A DNA stretch of 64,000 nt from a virus (lineage: Duplodnaviria > Caudoviricetes): IMG/VR virus record IMGVR_UViG_3300044611_001018. One strand, 5' to 3'. Positions within the stretch are counted from its first letter, which is position 1. Each line of letters starts with the position of its first letter. Both the position numbers and the translations under genes were made by a program. The notes under the pieces were generated by a model. That model was not told the DNA's origin. It saw nothing but the letters and a program-made list of their open reading frames with translations, and made no database searches. Below, one piece after another: positions 22,687-33,952 of this stretch.

Positions 22687-23340
22687 CTATCTTCTGCGTT
22701 CATAGTAATCTACTTTTGAAGGATGCATAAAATCAACCACAATTACACACCTATAGTATTCTTTTGCCACAATAGGTGGTGGCATAACTGGTTGATGATT
22801 AACATGAGAATGATGTATTAATAAAGAATTTTCATCTCCTGGAATGATGATTTCTCTATCTTTATTCTCAATTAGAGTTCCATATATTCTAGAGGGATTT
22901 TTAAGATAATAAATCATACCAAGATCAAAATTATCATGACTATGACTATTACCATAGTTTATATACAATTCATTCCCATAGTTCTCCTCTGTTGTCCCCC
23001 TCATCCGTTTTGCCCAATATGATTGGACTTTATACTCTTTTATTCTTGGGTCATTAGTGATTTCTGAATAAGTATAAAGATGTTTTTTAACTAATTTAAA
23101 AAAGTTTGTCCAACTTTTTTTATACCACAACTTACGTTGAGACAATCTATTAGTTGCTTCAACAGATAAATCCCATTTATCTTCACAAACTTCTAATTCA
23201 TTATCAATCTCTTCTAAGAGATTTTTCATATCATATTTACTTAGAAGATTATATGCCCTGTAGATTTCATTGCCACAAAAATCAAAGTGCTCTACATCTC
23301 TAGGATCTTCTGGATAGACTGGACCAATATCAAGTGTCAT
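22687..23340 (-). CDS. Putative 2OG-Fe(II) oxygenase (HxH type)
   Basis: SYW...NSHSH...GMIYYL...HQP. Confidence 0.55.
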   Translation of the reverse strand: MTLDIGPVYPEDPRDVEHFDFCGNEIYRAYNLLSKYDMKNLLEEIDNELEVCEDKWDLSVEATNRLSQRKLWYKKSWTNFFKLVKKHLYTYSEITNDPRIKEYKVQSYWAKRMRGTTEENYGNELYINYGNSHSHDNFDLGMIYYLKNPSRIYGTLIENKDREIIIPGDENSLLIHHSHVNHQPVMPPPIVAKEYYRCVIVVDFMHPSKVDYYERRR

Positions 23341-24148
23341 ATAACTTTTTCCAATAACTTACTGGTAAGAGTGGATTTTTAGGAATAAAATACTCTTCTT
23401 TGGCAGGACACATAGAGCAATAAGATTCTTCCTTACGAGTAAAAAAGTCTTTTAATTCTTCATCCGTACAGGTATGCTCTAATGGTGTATATTTAAGATA
23501 TGGTTCCCACTTTTCAGATAGATTATATTTATTTGCTTGCATTGGAAGATATGCAAGAGCGGGACACTTCCAAAGTTTTCCTTCATGCAATTGAACACAC
23601 AACTTTGATACACAATACTTCCAACTTAACTTTGGATTATCATCTTCAAATGGTTCCATTTTATCACCAAACCCTTTATATTGTCTAATCCAATGAATAA
23701 TTGATGGACGCATTTCAACTGGCGCTCCTTTTGCAATCCATTCTCTCATTAGATTATAAACTGGTTCAAACTTCTGCCTATATTCTGGGTCACCATCAGA
23801 ATGAACAGATACACCAAGAGTTGTTCTTGTTTTTTTTAATGCTTCCCAAAGATTTGGATGTTTATACAGATAAAATCCATTAGAAATTAAATCCAAATAT
23901 GAATTTGACCACTTTTCTCTTGCCAAATATACAAATTCAGTCAAATCTGGATGTAAAGCAGGCTCTCCACCCATCAATGTGAACCTTTGAGGTATGATTC
24001 TTTTACTCCAGTTTTCCATCCACTCTGATGCCTGTTCAAGAGATACAGAACCAGAGTGACCTTGATTCATATAATGAGTGCATCCCTCACAAGTTAAATT
24101 GCAAGAGTGAGTAACGTGTAATTGTATCTCGTGAGGTACTTTTAACAT
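23330..24148 (-). CDS. Radical SAM protein, paralog of 19166..20017
   Basis: CNLTCEGC, MGGEPAL, QLHEGKLWKCPALAYLPMQ, CSMCP. Confidence 0.9.
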   Translation of the reverse strand: MLKVPHEIQLHVTHSCNLTCEGCTHYMNQGHSGSVSLEQASEWMENWSKRIIPQRFTLMGGEPALHPDLTEFVYLAREKWSNSYLDLISNGFYLYKHPNLWEALKKTRTTLGVSVHSDGDPEYRQKFEPVYNLMREWIAKGAPVEMRPSIIHWIRQYKGFGDKMEPFEDDNPKLSWKYCVSKLCVQLHEGKLWKCPALAYLPMQANKYNLSEKWEPYLKYTPLEHTCTDEELKDFFTRKEESYCSMCPAKEEYFIPKNPLLPVSYWKKLYDT

Positions 24149-24332
24149 ATCAGTTAAATTCTTCTATTCTTTTTAGGTCCAAGTATGTAAGTATTTCTTT
24201 CCTCCATTCCATCAACTCATAATAACACTGTTGCTCATGGGCAATTTCACGCAACTCATAATCTGGTTTTAAGACGCTCTCATAAAAAAGATTAAATGCA
24301 TCGCGCCTTTTTTGATGTTTTTCCATAATTTC

Positions 24333-24818
24333 CTACTTGGTTCTTAACCCACCAACAAGAACTCTTTTAGATTCAGAGTATTCTGCAGAATGAGGTATGT
24401 GAGAAGAAAATAGTAACACTTTATTTTTTTCTGGAATAATCTTATATTGATTATCATCAATATAAATCATGGTTTCACCATCATTACAAGAATTTAAGTA
24501 AAGTATAAAACTATAATCTTCATTGTGGTTGTGCTTATGCACATTCATTTTACCACCATTTTGATAATCAATCATATGAATATAAAAATATTTTAATTTT
24601 AAATTTAAAATATCCTCACACAATAATTTAACTTTATCAATATAGTTATAAAAGATTTTTGAGTTAATATTATCCAAAAGATTTAACGTGTAAAAACAAT
24701 TTCCACTTAAAGAACTTTGTTTTTTATCCTTAAAAGTCTCTGGATAATTAGAAACAAAATTAAGTAGAAGATTGAAGTAATCACTTACCTCATCTTCTAC
24801 AAAAAACTCTTTAAACAT
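24333..24818 (-). CDS. Putative 2OG-Fe(II) oxygenase (HxH type)
   Basis: MNVHKH...FILYLN...GET...LLFSSHIPHSA...RVLVG; start revised to MFKEFF. Confidence 0.7.
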   Translation of the reverse strand: MFKEFFVEDEVSDYFNLLLNFVSNYPETFKDKKQSSLSGNCFYTLNLLDNINSKIFYNYIDKVKLLCEDILNLKLKYFYIHMIDYQNGGKMNVHKHNHNEDYSFILYLNSCNDGETMIYIDDNQYKIIPEKNKVLLFSSHIPHSAEYSESKRVLVGGLRTK

Positions 24819-25555
24819 CAACCATTCCAACAAATTCAATATCTTCAAATTGATCTGATGTAATTTCGTGAGGTCCAATACGATACCAATATTCACCTTC
24901 CTTCTCACCAAGATATTCAATATCATCACATTGATGCTCACGCAACCATGCTTGAAGACGTTGATGCTTAAGTTCAGATTGTGAAATCTTCATCGGAATA
25001 AACCTCCTTGTATTTTTCAATAAGACGATCTCTCATGTCATGATATGGAGTGAGATCCAAGTCATACTCATCACCAAAATTCCAATCTTCACCATATCTG
25101 ATAGCGCAGATAGCTGCCTGAATCATTGTTTTCAGTCCTTCTCTGTCAACTGTAATTTTAACCAAAGCAGTTGGGTCTGAAGTTGGTTCCATTTTCATTT
25201 TTCAATTCTCCAATTAGGATCTGATACTTTATCTACCCAAAAATAACAAGTTTTATTTAATGATTCGACATAATATCGGTCATTATCTTCATTTTTAACT
25301 CTACAAGAATGGAATTGTAGCATATCAAGAGTAAACTGAGTTTTTGCTTCCTTACTGATTGGAGTCAGACAAATAAATTTTGTTTTCATTTTACAAATAC
25401 CGTTCCAGATTGAGGTTGTGTGCGATGTTTTTTAATAAAATTGTGAGCTGAGTTGACAGTTCTACAAACTTGCAGTTGCTCTCCATTATAGATGATCATA
25501 AGTTGATTTCCAAATGGAACTGCGGCATAACCGTCATTTGTAATAAATCCTTCTT

Positions 25556-26794
25556 TCATCGTTTAATAGTAGCAATAGCAGGTTGACCTTCAACAAACAC
25601 AGTATCTACAACGTTCTGAAGGCGTTTGACCGTTGCAATGCCCACGTTGTTGTAAACGGGAACATGAACAAAACCAAAAGATTTGGTGTACTCCTGGAGA
25701 TTACCAGGAGTAAGAGTGCCTTGTTGAATACGCTTTACATCATCAAGATGAAGACGAATCACACGACCAACAGATTGGCACATCTCAATAACATTCATTT
25801 GACGCATCATAATCAAAGAAGTAAGACCAGGAACAGAGATACCTTCACTCAGAATAGAATAGTGCAGAACAATAAACTTTTTGTCAGGATCTGCACCATA
25901 CTCACGTACAAGATTAAAAAACTGCTCACGGGTAATTTTCTGGTCATTAAGGAATGCACCATGCTTGCTGGTAATCCAAAGGAGATCGTATCCCATGGAT
26001 TGAACTTCCTCCATAAAGGCAGTCTCAGCAAGCATACGGATCATCACTTTGGTATTAGGAGCAGCGATTAGAACCTTCTCCATGTGCTCTTCATTGGATA
26101 GGGTATCCAGAAGGGTCATACAGTCCCTCTCTGCCGCTTCCTCGCCCTTCAAACGAATGCTACCGACATTGATGGCGTTAATCTTAGGAGGAAGAATGGA
26201 ACCGTTACTAACAAGACGCGGAGCAGGAACATTGTAAATAATGCCACCGTAGACACTAGCATCATTCATTCCAGGTTTTGAAGCAGTGGCAGAATACTTA
26301 GGAGTAGCAGTGAAGAAATAACTGCGGTTAGCAACAGAAGAGAAATACTTGACGGAAGAGAAATAACTTTTTTTAACTGAATTGTGCGCTTCATCATAGT
26401 AAATCGTATCTACAGCAATGTTTGCTTCCTGAATGCGATGCAGAGACTGATAAGTAGTAAAGATCAACTTATTACCTTTAGTGTGATAGCACCAGGAAAA
26501 GATTTGATTTGGTTTAGTCGTTGTAAAGTAAGGAAGATCGCCACCAGAATGAACATGCATAATGGATGCATTGGTGATGTGCTCAGTAAACTCAGCAGAC
26601 AACTGACGAGCGAGCATCAACCTAGGAGCAACGACTACAATAGTTTTGTCACCAGTCATAAACTGACGAACAGCATCCATAATAGCAATCAGGGACTTAC
26701 CACCGCCAGTGGGAACCACAATCATCCCCTTAAGGATGCGGTCCATGATGTCAAGTGCTTCGGATTGATGAGGACGGAGTTGCATGGGTGTCAT
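25556..26794 (-). CDS. Superfamily-2 (DExH) helicase/ATPase, type III-restriction Res-like
   Basis: LRPHQ, PTGGGKS (Walker A), DEAH, TAT, LSEGISVP, QSVGRVIR. Start revised because the -10 box overlaps the ORF-track start. Confidence 0.88.
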   Translation of the reverse strand: MTPMQLRPHQSEALDIMDRILKGMIVVPTGGGKSLIAIMDAVRQFMTGDKTIVVVAPRLMLARQLSAEFTEHITNASIMHVHSGGDLPYFTTTKPNQIFSWCYHTKGNKLIFTTYQSLHRIQEANIAVDTIYYDEAHNSVKKSYFSSVKYFSSVANRSYFFTATPKYSATASKPGMNDASVYGGIIYNVPAPRLVSNGSILPPKINAINVGSIRLKGEEAAERDCMTLLDTLSNEEHMEKVLIAAPNTKVMIRMLAETAFMEEVQSMGYDLLWITSKHGAFLNDQKITREQFFNLVREYGADPDKKFIVLHYSILSEGISVPGLTSLIMMRQMNVIEMCQSVGRVIRLHLDDVKRIQQGTLTPGNLQEYTKSFGFVHVPVYNNVGIATVKRLQNVVDTVFVEGQPAIATIKR

Positions 26795-26806
26795 AACGAT
26801 AGAAAT

Positions 26807-26864
26807 ATTATACAGCAAAAGTTACCAACCATCATCGGGAGAGTGGTCAGTTAAAAAATTGGTC
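26807..26864 (-). promoter_or_regulatory. Early-type promoter upstream of the helicase
   Basis: GACCAATTTTTTAACTGACCAC; AACTG lies 40 nt before TTTTGCTG-TATAAT. Confidence 0.7.
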
Positions 26865-27266
26865 TAAGGTGGGATGACCTATTGTACCATCAAATCGGTA
26901 ATGATATTCAAGTGCATCTGAACAAACATAATGTGGATGAGTTGTGGGAATTCCAAGTCTCTTACATAATTCACGATGATTATCCTCCATTAACTCAACA
27001 GCATACAACATATTGTTTATTACATGGTCCTCATCATGATATCTGCATAATTTATTTTTTAATTCTACTATAAAATTACCATTTCCAGCAGAATTATCAA
27101 GGAATTTTGAATCGGGATTTTTGAACAAACTTTGATCCATACACTCAATCAATTCATTAACCAAATCTGGTGGAGTAAAAACTTCTCCAGTCTCAGAAAT
27201 TCTCTGGTCTGACCTTTCAACTTCAGACCCTAAAGACTCATTATGTTTATTTTTATTGGATGACAT
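26847..27266 (-). CDS. SAM-binding half of an N6-adenine DNA methyltransferase (motifs X, I, II, III)
   Basis: ETGEVFTP, FLDNSAGNGNF, YAVEL, VCSDAL; no NPPY. Confidence 0.8.
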   Translation of the reverse strand: MSSNKNKHNESLGSEVERSDQRISETGEVFTPPDLVNELIECMDQSLFKNPDSKFLDNSAGNGNFIVELKNKLCRYHDEDHVINNMLYAVELMEDNHRELCKRLGIPTTHPHYVCSDALEYHYRFDGTIGHPTLDQFFN

Positions 27267-28101
27267 TTTTATCTCTCAAATACTCTATTTCTTCAGATGT
27301 AAAATCAAATTGTTGATGCACATCATTAAAATCCTTTATAAGAGGAACTTCTGCATTTTTAACTGCTGCAGCGAATCCAGCAGTAGTTTTATAGTTTTCA
27401 ACAAACAACTTAATTAAAGGAATATCAAATATAGTTGATAATAATTTACCTCCCTCTTCATCTTTGATAGGGCACCATGAGTTTAACATACCGATGTATC
27501 CATTTGTGATAAATCTGTCAGTATATGAACAAGAATATGGCACTACAAATTTTAGTAAGTCTCCCGTAGTCGGAAGAACATTAGTTCTTTTTATATTTTT
27601 TCCTGAGGCGTAAACTTCGTACTTTCCATCATCACAGTACTCATCTTTTGGAATGTCCTGCCCAATCTTAAGAGGTATCCTTGGATGATTTGAATTTGCA
27701 ATTTTATTAAAAATAGCATGTAATAATTTTTCTTCTCCAAACAAAGGGAGTCCATCTCTCAAATCCAAATAATGGATTCCAGTCTCATGTATAACTTTTG
27801 TAACTCCTTTATATGGTTCTTTTTTTAAAATCCATGAACAAATAGACACACCTTCAGTAAAATACTTATCGGAAGTATAATCAATTTGAATTAGGTTATA
27901 AATTGTTTGACATTTTTGAAAGAACTTTTTGCCAAATCCAGTTGTTCCAATAAAAGATGATGGCGTAACCTTTGCCATGGTTGCGCCATTTTGAAGAAGA
28001 TTGATGTCCAATTCAATAAACTTATACCAAAGTTTATTATTTTTTGCTTTATTATTATCTTGATATGGTGGGTTTGATAATATAGTAAAATTCATAACCA
28101 C
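27253..28101 (-). CDS. Catalytic/TRD half of an N6-adenine DNA methyltransferase (Eco57I/TaqI-like)
   Basis: ILSNPPYQ at the extreme N-terminus, LWYKFIE, VTPSSF, C-terminal FDFTSEEIEYL; no motif I. Confidence 0.75.
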   Translation of the reverse strand: MVMNFTILSNPPYQDNNKAKNNKLWYKFIELDINLLQNGATMAKVTPSSFIGTTGFGKKFFQKCQTIYNLIQIDYTSDKYFTEGVSICSWILKKEPYKGVTKVIHETGIHYLDLRDGLPLFGEEKLLHAIFNKIANSNHPRIPLKIGQDIPKDEYCDDGKYEVYASGKNIKRTNVLPTTGDLLKFVVPYSCSYTDRFITNGYIGMLNSWCPIKDEEGGKLLSTIFDIPLIKLFVENYKTTAGFAAAVKNAEVPLIKDFNDVHQQFDFTSEEIEYLRDKNVIQ

Positions 28102-28117
28102 TTACAATCATAATCAG

Positions 28118-28146
28118 ATATTACTAGGTGTTTTTTAATTTGTCAA
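28118..28146 (-). promoter_or_regulatory. Sigma70-type promoter for the methyltransferase pair
   Basis: TTGACA-N17-TAATAT, inside the 3' end of the fibre gene. Confidence 0.55.
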
Positions 28147-31100
28147 CCTCTCTTCTTAACTCATCAATTTGTCCCTGCTGCTCCTTGATAGCCTCAATCA
28201 AAACTGCAACCATGTTCTGATATGCAACAGATTTAGTACCATCAGGAGCTTCATATACTAATTCAGGTAGTACTTTCTCAATCTCTTGTGCAATAACACC
28301 AATCTCACGTTCAGGTTGACCAATACGGTTAAAGTAAACACCTCTCAAATCAAGAACTTTATTAAGAGCATTACCAATACCAACAACATTTTCTTTCAGT
28401 TTCTCGTCAGAGTTTGCTGTAACTGTTCCTGAGAATGTTGCATTACCAGCATTGTTGAGTCTGAGTCGTTCTTGTGGTGCAGAAGGACCAGAACCTTGGG
28501 TTCCAAAGATAATAGCAAATTGACCTGAGGTTCCTTCAGATACACCTTTGATGTATCCACGCTCACCATCATTACCAATATCTCTACCTTCAAACTTCAA
28601 TCCACCATAAAAATACGAAGCATTAAGTGCCTGGTCAGTTTGCTGGAATCTCAAATAATTACCATCAATATCACCAGTTGTGTCTGGATTTGTTGTAATT
28701 AAAACGTCATTTCTAAAGGTTGAAATACCAGTTACCCTTAAGGTATTAAGATTAACTTGTTGGTTAAAGGTACTAATACCTGTATTAACTAAGAATCCAT
28801 TGGTAATATTCCAAGTTAGCGATGAGGCTCTAAATTCAACGTTATTTTCAAATAATGTTTGACCAGCAACATAAAGGGAATAACCAGCTTTTGCAGAAGT
28901 AGTCTCAATACCGACATTGGTTGTTGTTGAAATACCAACTCCATCAAATACCCAAACGTCAGATACGTTACTTAATCCAGAACCATCTCCCTTAAATGCT
29001 CCACTCCATAAACCAACATAATAATTATCACCACCAGATTGAATAGGTCCAAACTTTTTCCAATTATTATCATTGGTATAAACCCATCCAATTTCTCCAC
29101 CTGATGGTGGTTCTGCATCATATACAACGTTGCCAACGTTCCCTGCAATTAATGGCGTACCAATGCCTGTGGTATACTCTCTAGCAATAATTTGATCACC
29201 CTGAATAAGCAAACTATTTGCTTCAACAGAATTATTAATTGTTACTTTTTCATTAAATACTGCTGGACCATTAAATTCCGAGATAATATTATTGTCCTTT
29301 CCACCATCAACCTTTAATCCCCTATTAATAGTTAATTGTTCAGTAGAACCAACATCAAATCCAATAGCATCACTATTGCTTGTAAGGTCCTCTCCTCTTA
29401 CTGTTGGAATTGGAGCATTAGTAATTAAATCTTGTCCAGTAGCACCACTTGTAAATTTAGTTACTGTATATGCATTACCCTTATCATCCAATCCATTATA
29501 AAATGGAGTACCACCATTATCAGATACTGATTGTGATAGAATTCTTTCAACACTTCTAAACTGTCTATCTTGTCTCTCTGGTAAAGCAGTTGAATAGTTA
29601 CCAGGTCCAAATCCAAGATATTCAAAAGTGTGTCCAGATGCACGAATAATAGAGTTTCTTCTAAATTCTACTGGTTTAAATCTAACTTTTCTAATAACAG
29701 ACCCAACAACGTGAGTTTGTTTTTGAGTTCCAAATAATCCACGGAAGACATCAATTGCAGTATTAGAAGTAATTGACTCACTAATACGCATAATTTCATT
29801 ATCTAGAACCAGATAATCACCAATATCCCAACCCATATGAGTGGCATTGGTGACAGTCAAAGTATTAATTGTAGGATCAGTTAAAGCAACATTTAAAGTT
29901 GTAGTGATACCAGCGTACTGATAAACAAGTCTTGAAGATGCTGCTTCATCAGCAAAATCAATTGCACTATTTTGAGCACTAAATCCTATTGGATAAACTC
30001 TTCCAGATCCAGATGCAATTGCAGTTGTTGTACCTACTCCAACCTTTACAGCAAAACTACTTACATTATAAACTTCTGTTATTGTAAATTCACCGTTGTA
30101 AATATTCTGGTTGAATCCACCAAATTTAATTCTATTACCAACCAAGAATCCATGAGAATTTGAAGTGATAACACTTGCAATTCCAGTCACATTATTATAA
30201 TTTAACGAAGAGATTCCAACAGACTCACCAGTGACGTAGGCAGTAACGTCAGAAAGAACAGTAGCATTAACGTTACTCAGTCCATTAGTGTTAATACCAG
30301 TAATTGGTTGTGGACCAAGGAATTGATCTCTAGCATAAACTGTTGACGCAGATGATACTCTAACATTTTGATCATCACCAGTTGCAATACTCTCAATTTT
30401 ATAAACATTATTGTAATCAGTAAAACGACTGTCACGAATACCATCAATTTTAATTACATCACCAACGCTATTATGAATATTTAAAACTGTTACATAACCA
30501 GGAACCCATCCAGTAGTAGTTCCTACACCAACAACTGCTAATGTATTACCAATTCCAAAAGCAGAACCACCGTCTACAATTTTAATTCCAGTAATCGCAC
30601 CTGCAGAATCAATTTCAATGTTTGCAGTAGCATATTTTCCAGTTGTAGAACCAGCAAATCCTACCAGTCTTGCATTATACAACGTTTGAATGCTTCCAGA
30701 TCCATCACCATAATTTACACCAGCACTAGTAATTCCAACTCTAGTAATATAATTTAATCCATGATCTTTTTGAGTTGTAAGTGTGTGAGATATTCCAGAA
30801 CTTGAATGTATCTCAACAATTCCAAATCCAACAACAAAATCACGAATATTCTTATTAATAACCTCTTTTGTAATACTATTCTGTGGGTTATTAATCTCAG
30901 TTAGTCCAAGTGGTGTTGGTAGAGCAAACGTTCTAGTCTGATCTGGATCGGAATCTGGATTATCTCTATCAAGTTGTGGGTATAAATTTTTAACTGGTTG
31001 AGAGAATCTAAGATTTTGGAATGGAGATACTTGAGGTGAAGATGATGAATCAAGAATAGTTAAATGATAAACTCCATCTTTTGCATTTGGAACATATTCC

Positions 31101-33952
31101 TGGACTGCTTCCTTTCTATAAATGTAGAACGTATTACTAAATTCTTTTCTCTCATATCTGGGCAGATTTGTTGTTCTCTGATTAATATTATTAGAGAATG
31201 TTCCTGGATTGGTAGTAATACCAACTGTAAATTCTCTCCGTGTAGGACTTGATACAACAGTATAAACGCCATTAAATCCAGTATTTCCTAATCCACTTGT
31301 GTTTGCTGTTGATACAATGTTAAAAACTTGAACTTTAGAACCAACAGACAGTTCATGTGGTGTATCTGTCGTAAACGTCGCTAATCCAACAATTCCGTCC
31401 CAGGTAGCACCCGAAATAAATCTAGGATTTCTTAATTCTGAAGTATTAGATAGGACAGCTGGCGCAATACTTTTAAACTTAGCAACCTCTGCATTAGTAA
31501 ATCCAGTTGTATTGCTGGACTCCTGCATAATAAATGCATCTTCTGGAGGTCTACCAAGAACACTTGAATCTCTTGGAATTACATACCTTACTTTGTAAAT
31601 TCGATCTTCAAGAGCTCTATTATCAGGAGTTCTAGTAATAAATGTTTTTGGAGTTGCCCTACCAAGGGATGCTGTTCCAAGACCAACAATCGTACTATAA
31701 ATTGAGTTATTAGTAGAACTTACCGTAATAAACCATTGACCAATAGCACTATCATATTGTATTGGGTGCCCAACGTCACCAGACTTTTTATCAGATACTC
31801 TAGATTCAATCTGAAGAATACCACCTTTACTATTAACAGTGATAGCAGACAAACTTACAGTGTCATTAAATGTTTGTGCTAATTTAATCTGATCACTATT
31901 AATTCCAGCAGTAATTGCATAATAAAGTTGATTGTGCCTCAAACCATCAGGAAGTTCACCATCATCACTTAAAATACGTACAGATTCACCATTAATAAAT
32001 TGGTGAGGTTGAGTTGCTGTAAAGATATTAGAGGTAATACTATTAATACCAATTGCTGTTCTACCTACAGTAGATAATTTTGTAGCAGATACCTCATAAT
32101 TACCAGTTCCCTGTGTCTCTGGCATTACAATTACAGATTCTTTGGTAACACCAATGTTACCAATATTAATAACAACTTTTAATTTGTCCTGATTTTTCGC
32201 ACCAATTCGATATCCTTCTAATACTGATTTTGGTGGTATATTTCTATTGGTCTCATTATAAAGATAAAGTCTAGAAGTATTACCTACAGAAATTGTTTTC
32301 TCAACGTCAATAGGAGCAAATTCAATAGTTATTTCATTATTATCAACTCTTTGTGGTGGTAAAATATGGGTAATATATCCAGTATCATCTCTTGGGAAAG
32401 CGTCATTTCTGAATCCTCTACAAACAATTGCCTTTGCACCAAAGTTTGAGTTGGAGTTTGTAATCGAATGGTCTCCACCAGATTCTGCAACAAAGTGATT
32501 TGCATATCCAATAGCAAACACAGAAACTAGTTGAAGGAATGCATCATTTGATGCTTTAATATGGAAGTTTTCGTATGCTGGTTTATATACTGCAGAAGAA
32601 TTGGTATGAAGGTTTGAAACAGCAGTAGAATCTTCATAAACACCAGATACTGCATTATATTTTACAAATGCATTATCGTCTTTCTGTAGTCCAATACCAG
32701 TGAACTGAGCAACCACCATGGATTTAAATCCATCAGCTTTGCTACCATCCGCATGAAGTCCACACATTCCATAAACGGAACGTAAAGAACAATTGAAGAT
32801 ATATGGAGATGCAGAAGTAACACTGTCAACTACAATATTAAGAGTTGGAGCACCTGATACAATAGCAGGAAGAGGATTTACAGGTGCTGTAGAAACCTCA
32901 TAAGTAACCCGAGTTGTAGATTCTACAGTTTTTACAACATAAGAACCATTGTATCCACCACTAGGAATACCTTCAATTCTAATCGGAGTATCTACATCCA
33001 ATCCATCAACAGATTCAACAAGATCTACTGTAATTTTCTTACTGGAAGTTACACCATCACCTGCTCTGATACTAGAAATTCCAATATTTTGACCTTTAGA
33101 ACCAACAATTCGGAATTCATCAATTTTTGATTGAACATCAATTGCAGCACTTGGATAATCAGGTGAAATAGATCTTCCACTAGAAGGACCATATACTAAA
33201 CCGATTTTTTCATAATAAATGTCAAGGTCGGTTCTAGTCGTATTGTAATTTAAATAAGTATCATTAAATTTTACAGGATTTACACCATCCGCATATTCAA
33301 AACAAGTTAGTTTATGGTGAGAGAAGTTGGGAACAAACTTTGATGTGCCATAATCTTTATATACATTTGAGTTTGGATCCGCATCAAAAAATGTAAACTG
33401 ATAAAAATAACAAGTACCAGTTACTCGAAATAAACAAGTTGAATCAACTGTATTGTCTTGAGGACTTGGAACAAACCTTGGACGAATCTTTGTTTTACGA
33501 AGATCCATACCAACGATTGATGTGCCACGAGGAATGATAACTCCACCATAAACGGAGTTCATTTTATAAAGATCATTCTCTGGAGAATCAATGTCAAAAT
33601 CAGAATTTAAAGTAAATTCTGTGAGGTCATTAGAAGATGCACCACTTCTAGTTAACCAATTATTACCAGAAATAGGAGCGTCATGTACAGGAATCCATCC
33701 TGGTCTATTGTCGATTACATGTTCGCCAGGATAAACAATGATAGTTGTTCTACTAAATCTATCATTATCAAATCCTTTTTGATATGAGAATCTTGCTGCC
33801 TCAATCAGTGCCCTTTGAATTGTTTTAAAAGGTCTAACTAATGAGTTACCTTGGTTTTCAATACTATCTGTAGAGTCTATACTGGAAGGATCGACGTATA
33901 GAATATCGCCTCTACTATTTTTCAGAAAATTATCTAAGCGACTAAGACCCAT
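28124..33952 (-). CDS. Large virion fibre/structural protein, 1942 aa, with C-terminal S74 intramolecular chaperone
   Basis: Cyanophage-type N-terminus (MGLSRLDNFLKN...RPFKTIQRAL), beta-rich Gly/Ser/Thr body, SDEKLKEN...IGVIAQEIEKVLPELV, terminal coiled coil. Confidence 0.88.
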   Translation of the reverse strand: MGLSRLDNFLKNSRGDILYVDPSSIDSTDSIENQGNSLVRPFKTIQRALIEAARFSYQKGFDNDRFSRTTIIVYPGEHVIDNRPGWIPVHDAPISGNNWLTRSGASSNDLTEFTLNSDFDIDSPENDLYKMNSVYGGVIIPRGTSIVGMDLRKTKIRPRFVPSPQDNTVDSTCLFRVTGTCYFYQFTFFDADPNSNVYKDYGTSKFVPNFSHHKLTCFEYADGVNPVKFNDTYLNYNTTRTDLDIYYEKIGLVYGPSSGRSISPDYPSAAIDVQSKIDEFRIVGSKGQNIGISSIRAGDGVTSSKKITVDLVESVDGLDVDTPIRIEGIPSGGYNGSYVVKTVESTTRVTYEVSTAPVNPLPAIVSGAPTLNIVVDSVTSASPYIFNCSLRSVYGMCGLHADGSKADGFKSMVVAQFTGIGLQKDDNAFVKYNAVSGVYEDSTAVSNLHTNSSAVYKPAYENFHIKASNDAFLQLVSVFAIGYANHFVAESGGDHSITNSNSNFGAKAIVCRGFRNDAFPRDDTGYITHILPPQRVDNNEITIEFAPIDVEKTISVGNTSRLYLYNETNRNIPPKSVLEGYRIGAKNQDKLKVVINIGNIGVTKESVIVMPETQGTGNYEVSATKLSTVGRTAIGINSITSNIFTATQPHQFINGESVRILSDDGELPDGLRHNQLYYAITAGINSDQIKLAQTFNDTVSLSAITVNSKGGILQIESRVSDKKSGDVGHPIQYDSAIGQWFITVSSTNNSIYSTIVGLGTASLGRATPKTFITRTPDNRALEDRIYKVRYVIPRDSSVLGRPPEDAFIMQESSNTTGFTNAEVAKFKSIAPAVLSNTSELRNPRFISGATWDGIVGLATFTTDTPHELSVGSKVQVFNIVSTANTSGLGNTGFNGVYTVVSSPTRREFTVGITTNPGTFSNNINQRTTNLPRYERKEFSNTFYIYRKEAVQEYVPNAKDGVYHLTILDSSSSPQVSPFQNLRFSQPVKNLYPQLDRDNPDSDPDQTRTFALPTPLGLTEINNPQNSITKEVINKNIRDFVVGFGIVEIHSSSGISHTLTTQKDHGLNYITRVGITSAGVNYGDGSGSIQTLYNARLVGFAGSTTGKYATANIEIDSAGAITGIKIVDGGSAFGIGNTLAVVGVGTTTGWVPGYVTVLNIHNSVGDVIKIDGIRDSRFTDYNNVYKIESIATGDDQNVRVSSASTVYARDQFLGPQPITGINTNGLSNVNATVLSDVTAYVTGESVGISSLNYNNVTGIASVITSNSHGFLVGNRIKFGGFNQNIYNGEFTITEVYNVSSFAVKVGVGTTTAIASGSGRVYPIGFSAQNSAIDFADEAASSRLVYQYAGITTTLNVALTDPTINTLTVTNATHMGWDIGDYLVLDNEIMRISESITSNTAIDVFRGLFGTQKQTHVVGSVIRKVRFKPVEFRRNSIIRASGHTFEYLGFGPGNYSTALPERQDRQFRSVERILSQSVSDNGGTPFYNGLDDKGNAYTVTKFTSGATGQDLITNAPIPTVRGEDLTSNSDAIGFDVGSTEQLTINRGLKVDGGKDNNIISEFNGPAVFNEKVTINNSVEANSLLIQGDQIIAREYTTGIGTPLIAGNVGNVVYDAEPPSGGEIGWVYTNDNNWKKFGPIQSGGDNYYVGLWSGAFKGDGSGLSNVSDVWVFDGVGISTTTNVGIETTSAKAGYSLYVAGQTLFENNVEFRASSLTWNITNGFLVNTGISTFNQQVNLNTLRVTGISTFRNDVLITTNPDTTGDIDGNYLRFQQTDQALNASYFYGGLKFEGRDIGNDGERGYIKGVSEGTSGQFAIIFGTQGSGPSAPQERLRLNNAGNATFSGTVTANSDEKLKENVVGIGNALNKVLDLRGVYFNRIGQPEREIGVIAQEIEKVLPELVYEAPDGTKSVAYQNMVAVLIEAIKEQQGQIDELRREVDKLKNT

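Follow-up and report, generated by a model that had tools for sequence, protein, structure and literature searches.

A cyanophage gene pair predicted to encode the two halves of a gamma-type adenine methyltransferase in reversed order

The stretch of viral DNA analysed here, 64,000 nucleotides (nt) of the IMG/VR record IMGVR_UViG_3300044611_001018 (Caudoviricetes) and hereafter called the window, belongs to a lake cyanophage and carries on its minus strand a pair of adjacent genes that appear to encode the complementary halves of one DNA adenine methyltransferase. The gene transcribed first encodes a large protein with the catalytic motif NPPY and a target recognition domain (TRD), while the gene transcribed second encodes a small protein that corresponds to the half binding the cofactor S-adenosylmethionine (AdoMet; Table 1). 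The open reading frame (ORF) of the large gene can be read from a GTG, and an ATG two codons inside it, at 28095, gives a protein of 280 amino acids (aa); the latter is the start in the close homologues P0189, P0190 and L010, and is likely the true start of the gene. The end of the large ORF and the beginning of the small ORF overlap in different frames, suggesting that translation of the pair is coupled. The nearest independent virus record, G001, contains both ORFs in the same arrangement with 99–100% identity, which makes an assembly error an unlikely source of the split.

Table 1. Positions of the methylase pair, its motifs and domains, and the neighbouring genes in the window
Feature	Position	Strand	Basis or remark
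Large subunit gene (catalytic half + TRD)	27253..28101	-	282 aa from GTG at 28101
Small subunit gene (AdoMet-binding half; motifs X, I, II, III)	26847..27266	-	139 aa
Overlap of large-gene stop and small-gene start, 14 nt	27253..27266	-	Small-gene ATG at 27264-27266
Large protein: motif IV, NPPY (residues 10-13), after short hydrophobic strand beta4	28063..28074	-	Conservation in homologues
Large protein: predicted C-terminal half of methyltransferase Rossmann-like fold, beta4 onward (residues 1-122)	27736..28101	-	Structure match
Large protein: predicted TRD, type I S-subunit fold (residues about 138-260)	27322..27690	-	Structure match
Small protein: motif X, GEVFTP (residues 27-32)	27171..27188	-	Conservation
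Small protein: motif I, glycine loop (residues 55-65)	27072..27104	-	Aligns with CamA motif I region
Small protein: presumed motif II region (residues 88-96)	26979..27005	-	Beta2 ending in E91, then conserved D95-N96
Small protein: motif III region (residues 113-119, D117)	26910..26930	-	Alignments with CamA and canonical relatives
Small protein: vestigial beta4 + motif IV, FDGTIGHP (residues 125-132)	26871..26894	-	His in place of catalytic Asn
Sigma-70-like promoter motif, TTGACA-17 nt-TAATAT	28118..28146	-	10/12 positions match
Fibre-like protein gene	28124..33952	-	1942 aa
Superfamily 2 (SF2) helicase gene	25556..26818	-	420 aa; ResIII, DEAD, Helicase_C
Block downstream of the helicase (radical-SAM-like and possible 2-oxoglutarate-oxygenase-like ORFs)	23330..24941	-	Radical-SAM-like ORF 272 aa

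The large protein contains the second half of a methyltransferase. Its NPPY motif lies almost at the N-terminus, where N10, P11 and P12 are invariant and Y13 is nearly invariant among 38 homologues, and no motif I was found anywhere in the protein. Consistent with this layout, the Pfam profile Eco57I is matched at positions 78–165 of 171 only (E 1.7e-4), and of the PglX and CamA/M.TaqI profiles, too, only the second half is matched. The initial annotation, made from the sequence alone, had described a gene that opens with NPPY, continues into a TRD-like region and lacks motif I, and this description holds. The Eco57I score of 22.2 bits lies below the curated cut-off of 25.3 bits, a shortfall that is expected of half-profile content and is thus little informative. 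PHROGs assigns the large protein to the DNA methyltransferase family phrog_3689 (E 1.5e-21).

With the 38 homologues as input, AlphaFold modelled the large protein with a mean predicted local distance difference test (pLDDT) score of 90.1 and a predicted template modelling (pTM) score of 0.81, and the model was compared with solved structures and by Foldseek. The only less confident part comprises the first 20 residues, which form beta4 and the NPPY motif and would be buried by a partner subunit. The whole model matches M.BseCI (Z 11.8), CamA (Z 11.7) and M.TaqI (Z 9.4), and it begins at CamA residue 159 and M.TaqI residue 99, the start of beta4 in both enzymes; the best Foldseek matches are CamA, M.TaqI, M.BseCI and BrxX. 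Specifically, residues 1–122 align with the second half of type I M subunits (2okc, Z 9.1; 3ufb, Z 7.8; EcoKI M, Z 7.5), while residues 138–259 align with the TRDs of type I S subunits (1ydx, Z 8.1; 1yf2, Z 7.3; EcoKI S, Z 6.9), of which 1ydx is also matched weakly by sequence (E 0.1). Because of these two sets of matches, the large protein is predicted to be the beta4-onward half of a gamma-class adenine methylase, that is, a catalytic half, joined to a DNA-reading domain of the type I S kind.

NPPY enzymes include PrmC/HemK and rRNA m2G/m6A methylases, and the substrate cannot be read from the motif alone. Low in the list, the model does match Trm11, TrmM and METTL5 weakly by fold (Z 4–5). 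That the enzyme methylates RNA or protein is nonetheless very improbable, since the best matches, over most of the model, are the DNA enzymes M.BseCI, CamA and M.TaqI (Z 9.4–11.8), the C-terminal domain adopts the DNA recognition fold of type I S subunits (Z 7–8), and relatives of the protein are fused to restriction-type motors.

The small protein matches the other half of the fold. It aligns over its full length with phrog_4376, a stand-alone phage family of 134 aa (E 3e-61), and only with the first half of the N6_Mtase, CamA and type II methyltransferase profiles. In particular, the Pfam N6_Mtase match covers profile positions 21–90 of 311 only (E 4e-4), with a score of 20.2 bits against a curated cut-off of 20.4 bits, again as expected of half-profile content, and the match to CamA covers CamA residues 27–82. 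Among 24 stand-alone homologues, F30 of motif X is invariant and E28, T31 and P32 are nearly invariant, while in the glycine loop of motif I, G61 and G63 are invariant and F65 is nearly invariant. In the segment following beta2, D95 is invariant and N96 is nearly invariant in the same homologues; we take residues 88–96 to be motif II, partly from general knowledge of the fold and partly from alignment with canonical relatives. Judged from its sequence motifs, the small protein is predicted to be the AdoMet-binding half of the enzyme. The content of motifs X, I, II and III and the 14-nt overlap agree with what had been noted initially, with one addition, a dead remnant of motif IV.

The remnant lies in the C-terminal tail of the small protein, which BLASTP aligns with the beta4-NPP stretch of the canonical proteins P0051 (residues 108–116) and P0032 (residues 127–135) and which HMMER weakly aligns with the corresponding stretch of CamA. 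When the two window proteins are mapped onto a canonical enzyme, beta4 is covered by both of them. Such double coverage would be expected to remain after a duplication followed by trimming, whereas a clean cut would not leave it. The type of C-terminal tail on the small protein tracks the type of its partner (27/27 and 47/50), a rule broken by the isolates MA01 and S-CAM7 0809CC03, and this covariation is probably a matter of co-inheritance. In S-CAM7 isolate 0809CC03, the 317-aa partner of the small gene (L002 1561-2514) has NFPF at the NPPY position.

Single-chain relatives account for both window proteins at once. Residues 7–116 of the canonical 411-aa protein P0051 match the small protein (38% identity, E 3e-26) and residues 111–403 align with the large protein from end to end (25% identity, E 2e-13), in agreement with the initial proposal that the joined halves correspond to one gamma-class enzyme; overall, canonical single-chain relatives share 25–39% identity with the window halves. 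An exhaustive profile search with the small protein returned 1431 clusters at E values up to 0.001, of which the best 150 were classified by script. These best 150 comprise about 99 stand-alone forms (up to about 210 aa, without NPPY), 17 canonical forms (the module of motifs X, I and III N-terminal and NPPY directly after it), and about 31 forms of other architectures.

Furthermore, five single-chain relatives are permuted, with NPPY at residues 8–9 and a C-terminal X-I-III module: P0012 (399 aa), P0028 (416 aa) and P0001–P0003 (about 448 aa; from a Paludibacteraceae metagenome-assembled genome and others), P0002 and P0003 having come from a separate search outside the best 150 clusters. The five proteins contain nothing beyond the two parts, and their existence indicates that the reordered layout can make one enzyme. 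An AlphaFold model of fused P0012 has a mean pLDDT of 60 and is confident at its two ends only. In a poorly resolved tree of the X-I-III module (117 columns), permuted forms appear at at least three places inside a clade rich in stand-alone forms, a placement that fits repeated fusion of split pairs, without giving the direction of events.

The permuted single chains also bear on whether the window pair is in truth one gene, that is, a permuted methylase broken by a frameshift in sequencing or assembly, or joined by programmed frameshifting into a chain of ~420 aa. Proteins in this order do exist, and the window ORFs do overlap in different frames; the reversed order alone, which the initial annotation had considered incompatible with a frameshift, is therefore insufficient to exclude one. 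The exclusion comes instead from the homologues. The two ORFs recur not only in G001 but also, with 90% identity, in L010 and L011. Across homologous pairs the overlap measures 4, 8, 11, 14, 17, 20, 26 or 56 nt, in differing frames and thus with no conserved frame relation, and each of the small genes begins with an ATG of its own and encodes a conserved N-terminus. In ACG-2014f, moreover, the small gene gp051 (L004 2498-2902) lies ~100 kb from gp191 (L005 1486-2391, 301 aa), the only ACG-2014f gene that begins at beta4. The independent records, the varying overlaps and frames, and the separate start codons rule out a frameshift or assembly artefact, and the one-gene explanation as a whole is scarcely credible.

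The linkage of the two halves was counted in IMG/VR phage loci, which provided 86 distinct loci with a small gene, 79 of them with a readable upstream gene. An NPPY gene lies directly upstream of the small gene in 68 of these 79 loci, and homologous pairs thus keep the order seen in the window. The upstream gene begins at beta4 in 40 loci (mostly the 193-aa P-SSM2 type) and has its NPPY further in in 28, while in 11 it lacks NPPY, several of these genes being cut by contig ends. In the reciprocal search from the large protein, a separate small gene was present in the locus for 35 of 38 NPPY proteins in which no X-I-III module was detected, directly downstream for 32 of them, as compared with 4 of 19 NPPY proteins that have an X-I-III module of their own (Fisher p 1e-7, the p value and the locus counts being uncorrected for shared ancestry). 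In these loci the halves seldom stand apart, and homologues of each half are therefore not found mostly without the other.

Among isolates, P-SSM2 (PSSM2_036/037) and S-CAM7 have an NPPY gene followed by a small gene; one S-CAM7 isolate has two such pairs, and a second S-CAM7 isolate has a third variant. The TRD halves of these isolates are unrelated, while their small proteins are 55–64% identical to that of the window. In all, at least four unrelated TRD halves adjoin a conserved small gene, indicating that the TRD half is exchangeable over evolutionary time, and it is on this time scale that the swappable TRD subunit proposed in the initial annotation finds support.

The relatives of the large protein point to its immediate history. 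The last 280 aa of proteins of ~1043–1101 aa, and of versions of 431–468 aa and 337–346 aa, are 55–60% identical to it. The long relatives, of about 1000–1100 aa (L007, from phage MA01, 1028-4252; L016 87-3008; L049 221-3505), carry an SF2-type motor, for which the ResIII match seen in MA01 is borderline (22.1 bits against a cut-off of 22.5 bits). Directly before beta4, the long proteins contain an N-terminal half that is compact and conserved, with a DPxGxH-type loop and an acidic end of beta2. Their loci are syntenic with the window, consisting of the long gene, the small gene and a helicase, and the helicase of L049 is 71% identical to that of the window. The window, G001, L010 and L011 lack all of the sequence that precedes beta4 in the long proteins, and there the 1942-aa fibre-like gene abuts the pair. 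By these comparisons, the window large gene appears to be the C-terminal 280 aa of a motor-methylase protein of ~1050 aa, cut exactly at beta4. Starts exactly at beta4 recur with other TRDs, both in no fewer than five additional clusters (P0191, P0215, P0218, P0232 and the P-SSM2 type) and in ACG-2014f gp191.

This history bears on the route of duplication and end-trimming that had been suggested for the pair at the outset: the small protein's dead copy of beta4 and motif IV is consistent with such a route, but the immediate history of the large gene is that of a truncated motor-methylase and not of a trimmed tandem duplicate. A Met two residues before beta4 is kept in many long and canonical proteins, P0021 and P0051 among them; it coincides with the exact start site of the truncated genes and could be a structural residue or an internal start. 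The window helicase was considered as a detached motor and rejected, as its sequence is not significantly similar to the N-terminal portion of the long motor-methylases; it is instead a conserved neighbour on the downstream side of the pair.

A truncation of this kind raises the alternative that the large gene is a decaying leftover of the motor-methylase after a deletion, with only the small gene and the helicase functional. The large gene does equal the end of long proteins in syntenic loci, and neither the N-terminal 810 aa (motor) of the long relatives nor a second copy was found in the window or in G001, the latter about 48% complete. Against this alternative, both genes are under strong purifying selection, with ratios of nonsynonymous to synonymous substitution (dN/dS) of 0.064 for the large gene and 0.071 for the small gene at a dS of 0.74 since the split from L010, in which the large gene has the same truncation. 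In addition, the large ORF is intact, all family-invariant residues are intact in both window halves, and the point of truncation coincides exactly with the domain boundary at which other, independent clusters are truncated. Since the dN/dS is low, the invariant residues are kept and beta4 starts recur in other clusters, a decaying remnant is disfavoured, and we consider it very unlikely.

The anatomy of the two proteins, their homology to both halves of single-chain enzymes, their conserved linkage, the purifying selection on their genes and the fold of the large half are best accommodated if the two proteins form an obligate two-subunit gamma-type N6-adenine (m6A) DNA methyltransferase with its active site at the subunit interface, and we consider that they probably do so. 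The sheet of class I methyltransferases has the strand order 3-2-1-4-5-7-6, with the cofactor bound at the junction of beta1 and beta4. Severing this sheet between motifs III and IV would leave one half for the cofactor and one for the substrate, and the two could reassemble edge to edge. Specifically, the small protein, with beta1–beta3 and motifs X, I, II and III, would bind AdoMet, while the large protein, with beta4–beta7, the NPPY loop and the type-I-S-like TRD, would flip and position the target adenine and read the DNA. The halves would dock along the beta1/beta4 edge of the Rossmann-like sheet, such that the cofactor pocket meets the catalytic loop at the interface, and neither half alone would be active. 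The overlapping stop and start would provide for coupled, roughly equal synthesis of the two subunits from one early-type transcript. The assembled enzyme would methylate adenine in a short DNA motif set by the TRD, and we infer that its biological role is most likely the protection of phage DNA from host restriction.

Several observations weigh against such a simple division of labour. The small protein has a beta4-like tail of its own besides the beta4 of the large protein. In many relatives, the NPPY protein keeps the compact N-terminal half (with conserved DPxGxH and the acidic beta2 end) and nevertheless has a small gene adjoining, and in L152, L155 and L156 one stand-alone small gene lies among two or three complete Eco57I-like methylase genes arrayed in tandem. 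About 31 of the best 150 clusters fuse the X-I-III module to something without NPPY; one clade of the module (P0031, P0041, P0049, P0050, P0052 and P0055) has a C-terminal extension of 200–350 aa in which neither NPPY nor a Pfam match was found. Finally, the loci that were counted are not phylogenetically independent. The small protein may have a role beyond simple complementation, or the compact N-terminal half of these relatives may be non-functional.

The occurrence of small genes beside NPPY proteins with a compact N-terminal half and within arrays of complete methylases, and the fusion of the module to unrelated extensions, would also be expected if the small protein, instead of supplying a missing half, assisted or regulated Eco57I-like methylases in general, for instance as a paralogue that binds the cofactor or dimerises. 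The truncated large protein would then be non-catalytic, for example a protein that binds DNA through its TRD. NPPY, however, stays invariant in the truncated proteins, and the dN/dS of the large gene is 0.064; the permuted single-chain enzymes hold nothing but these two parts; and small genes are mostly absent beside proteins with a clear X-I-III module of their own. On balance, an accessory partner is unlikely, and a two-subunit methyltransferase remains the preferred explanation.

A broader proposal, which we regard as tentative and on present evidence doubtful, is that the small protein is a portable cofactor subunit that activates several different NPPY/TRD subunits, unlinked ones included. 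The family would then preserve living intermediates of methyltransferase permutation, namely a remnant of duplication together with repeated fusions of split halves. If gp051 and gp191 of ACG-2014f form a pair, the cofactor subunit works on an unlinked partner. A cyanophage with such a portable subunit could change or multiply its methylation specificities by exchanging the gene for the catalytic half and TRD alone.

Comparison with known systems places the window pair closest to the gamma-class single-chain enzymes CamA (7lni), M.BseCI (7qw5) and M.TaqI (1aqi) and to the families N6_Mtase (PF02384) and Eco57I (PF07669), with which it shares all of motifs X, I, II, III and IV and a C-terminal TRD. 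In those enzymes the order X-I-II-III-IV-TRD is realised in one polypeptide, whereas the window pair divides the fold after motif III and before motif IV, with the gene encoding the later part placed upstream. Beta-class amino-methyltransferases (e.g. M.RsrI and M.PvuII; PF01555) have the linear order IV...TRD...X-I-III. The order IV-TRD-X-I-II-III of the window genes is alike along the DNA, and P0012, P0028 and P0001–P0003 have a beta-like topology in one chain; however, the beta-class enzymes are single chains, while the window pair consists of two chains and is gamma-like by sequence and fold, and PF01555 gave no match at E values up to 1 for either window protein.

M.AquI and M.EcoHK31I are natural two-polypeptide C5 methyltransferases that are split in or near the variable (recognition) region, with the gene order kept. 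They resemble the window pair in consisting of two separately translated polypeptides, whereas the window pair is of the NPPY N6-adenine type, is split inside the Rossmann-like core and has the reversed order. Engineered split and permuted versions of M.HhaI, M.SssI and M.MpeI have established that fragments can reassemble into an active enzyme and that permuted variants can work (PMC2836561, PMC3404938, PMC5944983). Those are laboratory constructs of C5 enzymes, whereas the window pair is natural, conserved and under purifying selection. In the type ISP enzymes LlaGI and LlaBIII (4xqk), an SF2/ResIII motor is combined with a methylase and TRD, as in the long relatives of the large gene, and LlaBIII matches the model of the large protein with Z 6.3. 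In contrast to the type ISP enzymes, which unite nuclease, motor, complete methylase and TRD in one chain, the window protein begins at beta4 and has no motor or nuclease part. A division of methylase function between two subunits is also known from the Type IIB enzyme BcgI, with the whole catalytic domain in subunit A and the TRD in subunit B (PMC3592466). The window pair differs in that the TRD stays with the catalytic loop and the cofactor half is separate.

The permuted motif orders of DNA methyltransferases have been debated since the late 1990s, with duplication and trimming set against fission and fusion, and the evidence has come mainly from sequence comparison and from engineered C5 enzymes. 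The small-module family contributes natural proteins in all three states, stand-alone, canonical-fused and permuted-fused, within one homologous group. The window pair is the cleanest case among them: both genes are short and intact (280 and 139 aa), the catalytic subunit retains no remainder of a cofactor half, and purifying selection is strong. It provides a natural case for asking whether a Rossmann-type methyltransferase works with an active site built across two chains. A review uses methyltransferases as its example of permutation by duplication; for fission and fusion, it names the occurrence of separate halves in related species as the evidence to be expected (PMC3320104). Full-text searches in a limited library turned up no account of a naturally occurring N6-adenine methylase divided between motifs III and IV, nor any mention of these cyanophage genes. 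In annotated cyanophage genomes, the genes are labelled hypothetical or, wrongly, restriction subunits (the long forms are "restriction subunit" in GenBank), and as a consequence the methylation capacity of phages is undercounted.

The surroundings of the pair contain further features. As the initial annotation had pointed out, a sigma-70-like promoter motif precedes the pair; it is indeed present, extends into the 3′ end of the 1942-aa gene upstream and stands ~23 nt ahead of the ATG at 28095, but such a motif is not above chance, as promoter-like matches are not enriched in this AT-rich region (5, against a mean of 7.5 in shuffled sequence). The upstream gene encodes the fibre-like protein and is the neighbour of the pair also in L010, where it is open at the end of the locus; in the window lineage it occupies the position that the motor part of the long methylase gene has in relatives. 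Directly downstream of the small gene lies the SF2 helicase gene, and in P-SSM2 and ACG-2014f, too, helicases come after the region of the pair. Further downstream, the helicase is followed by a radical-SAM-like ORF with a CxxxCxxC motif near its N-terminus and by a possible 2-oxoglutarate-oxygenase-like ORF.

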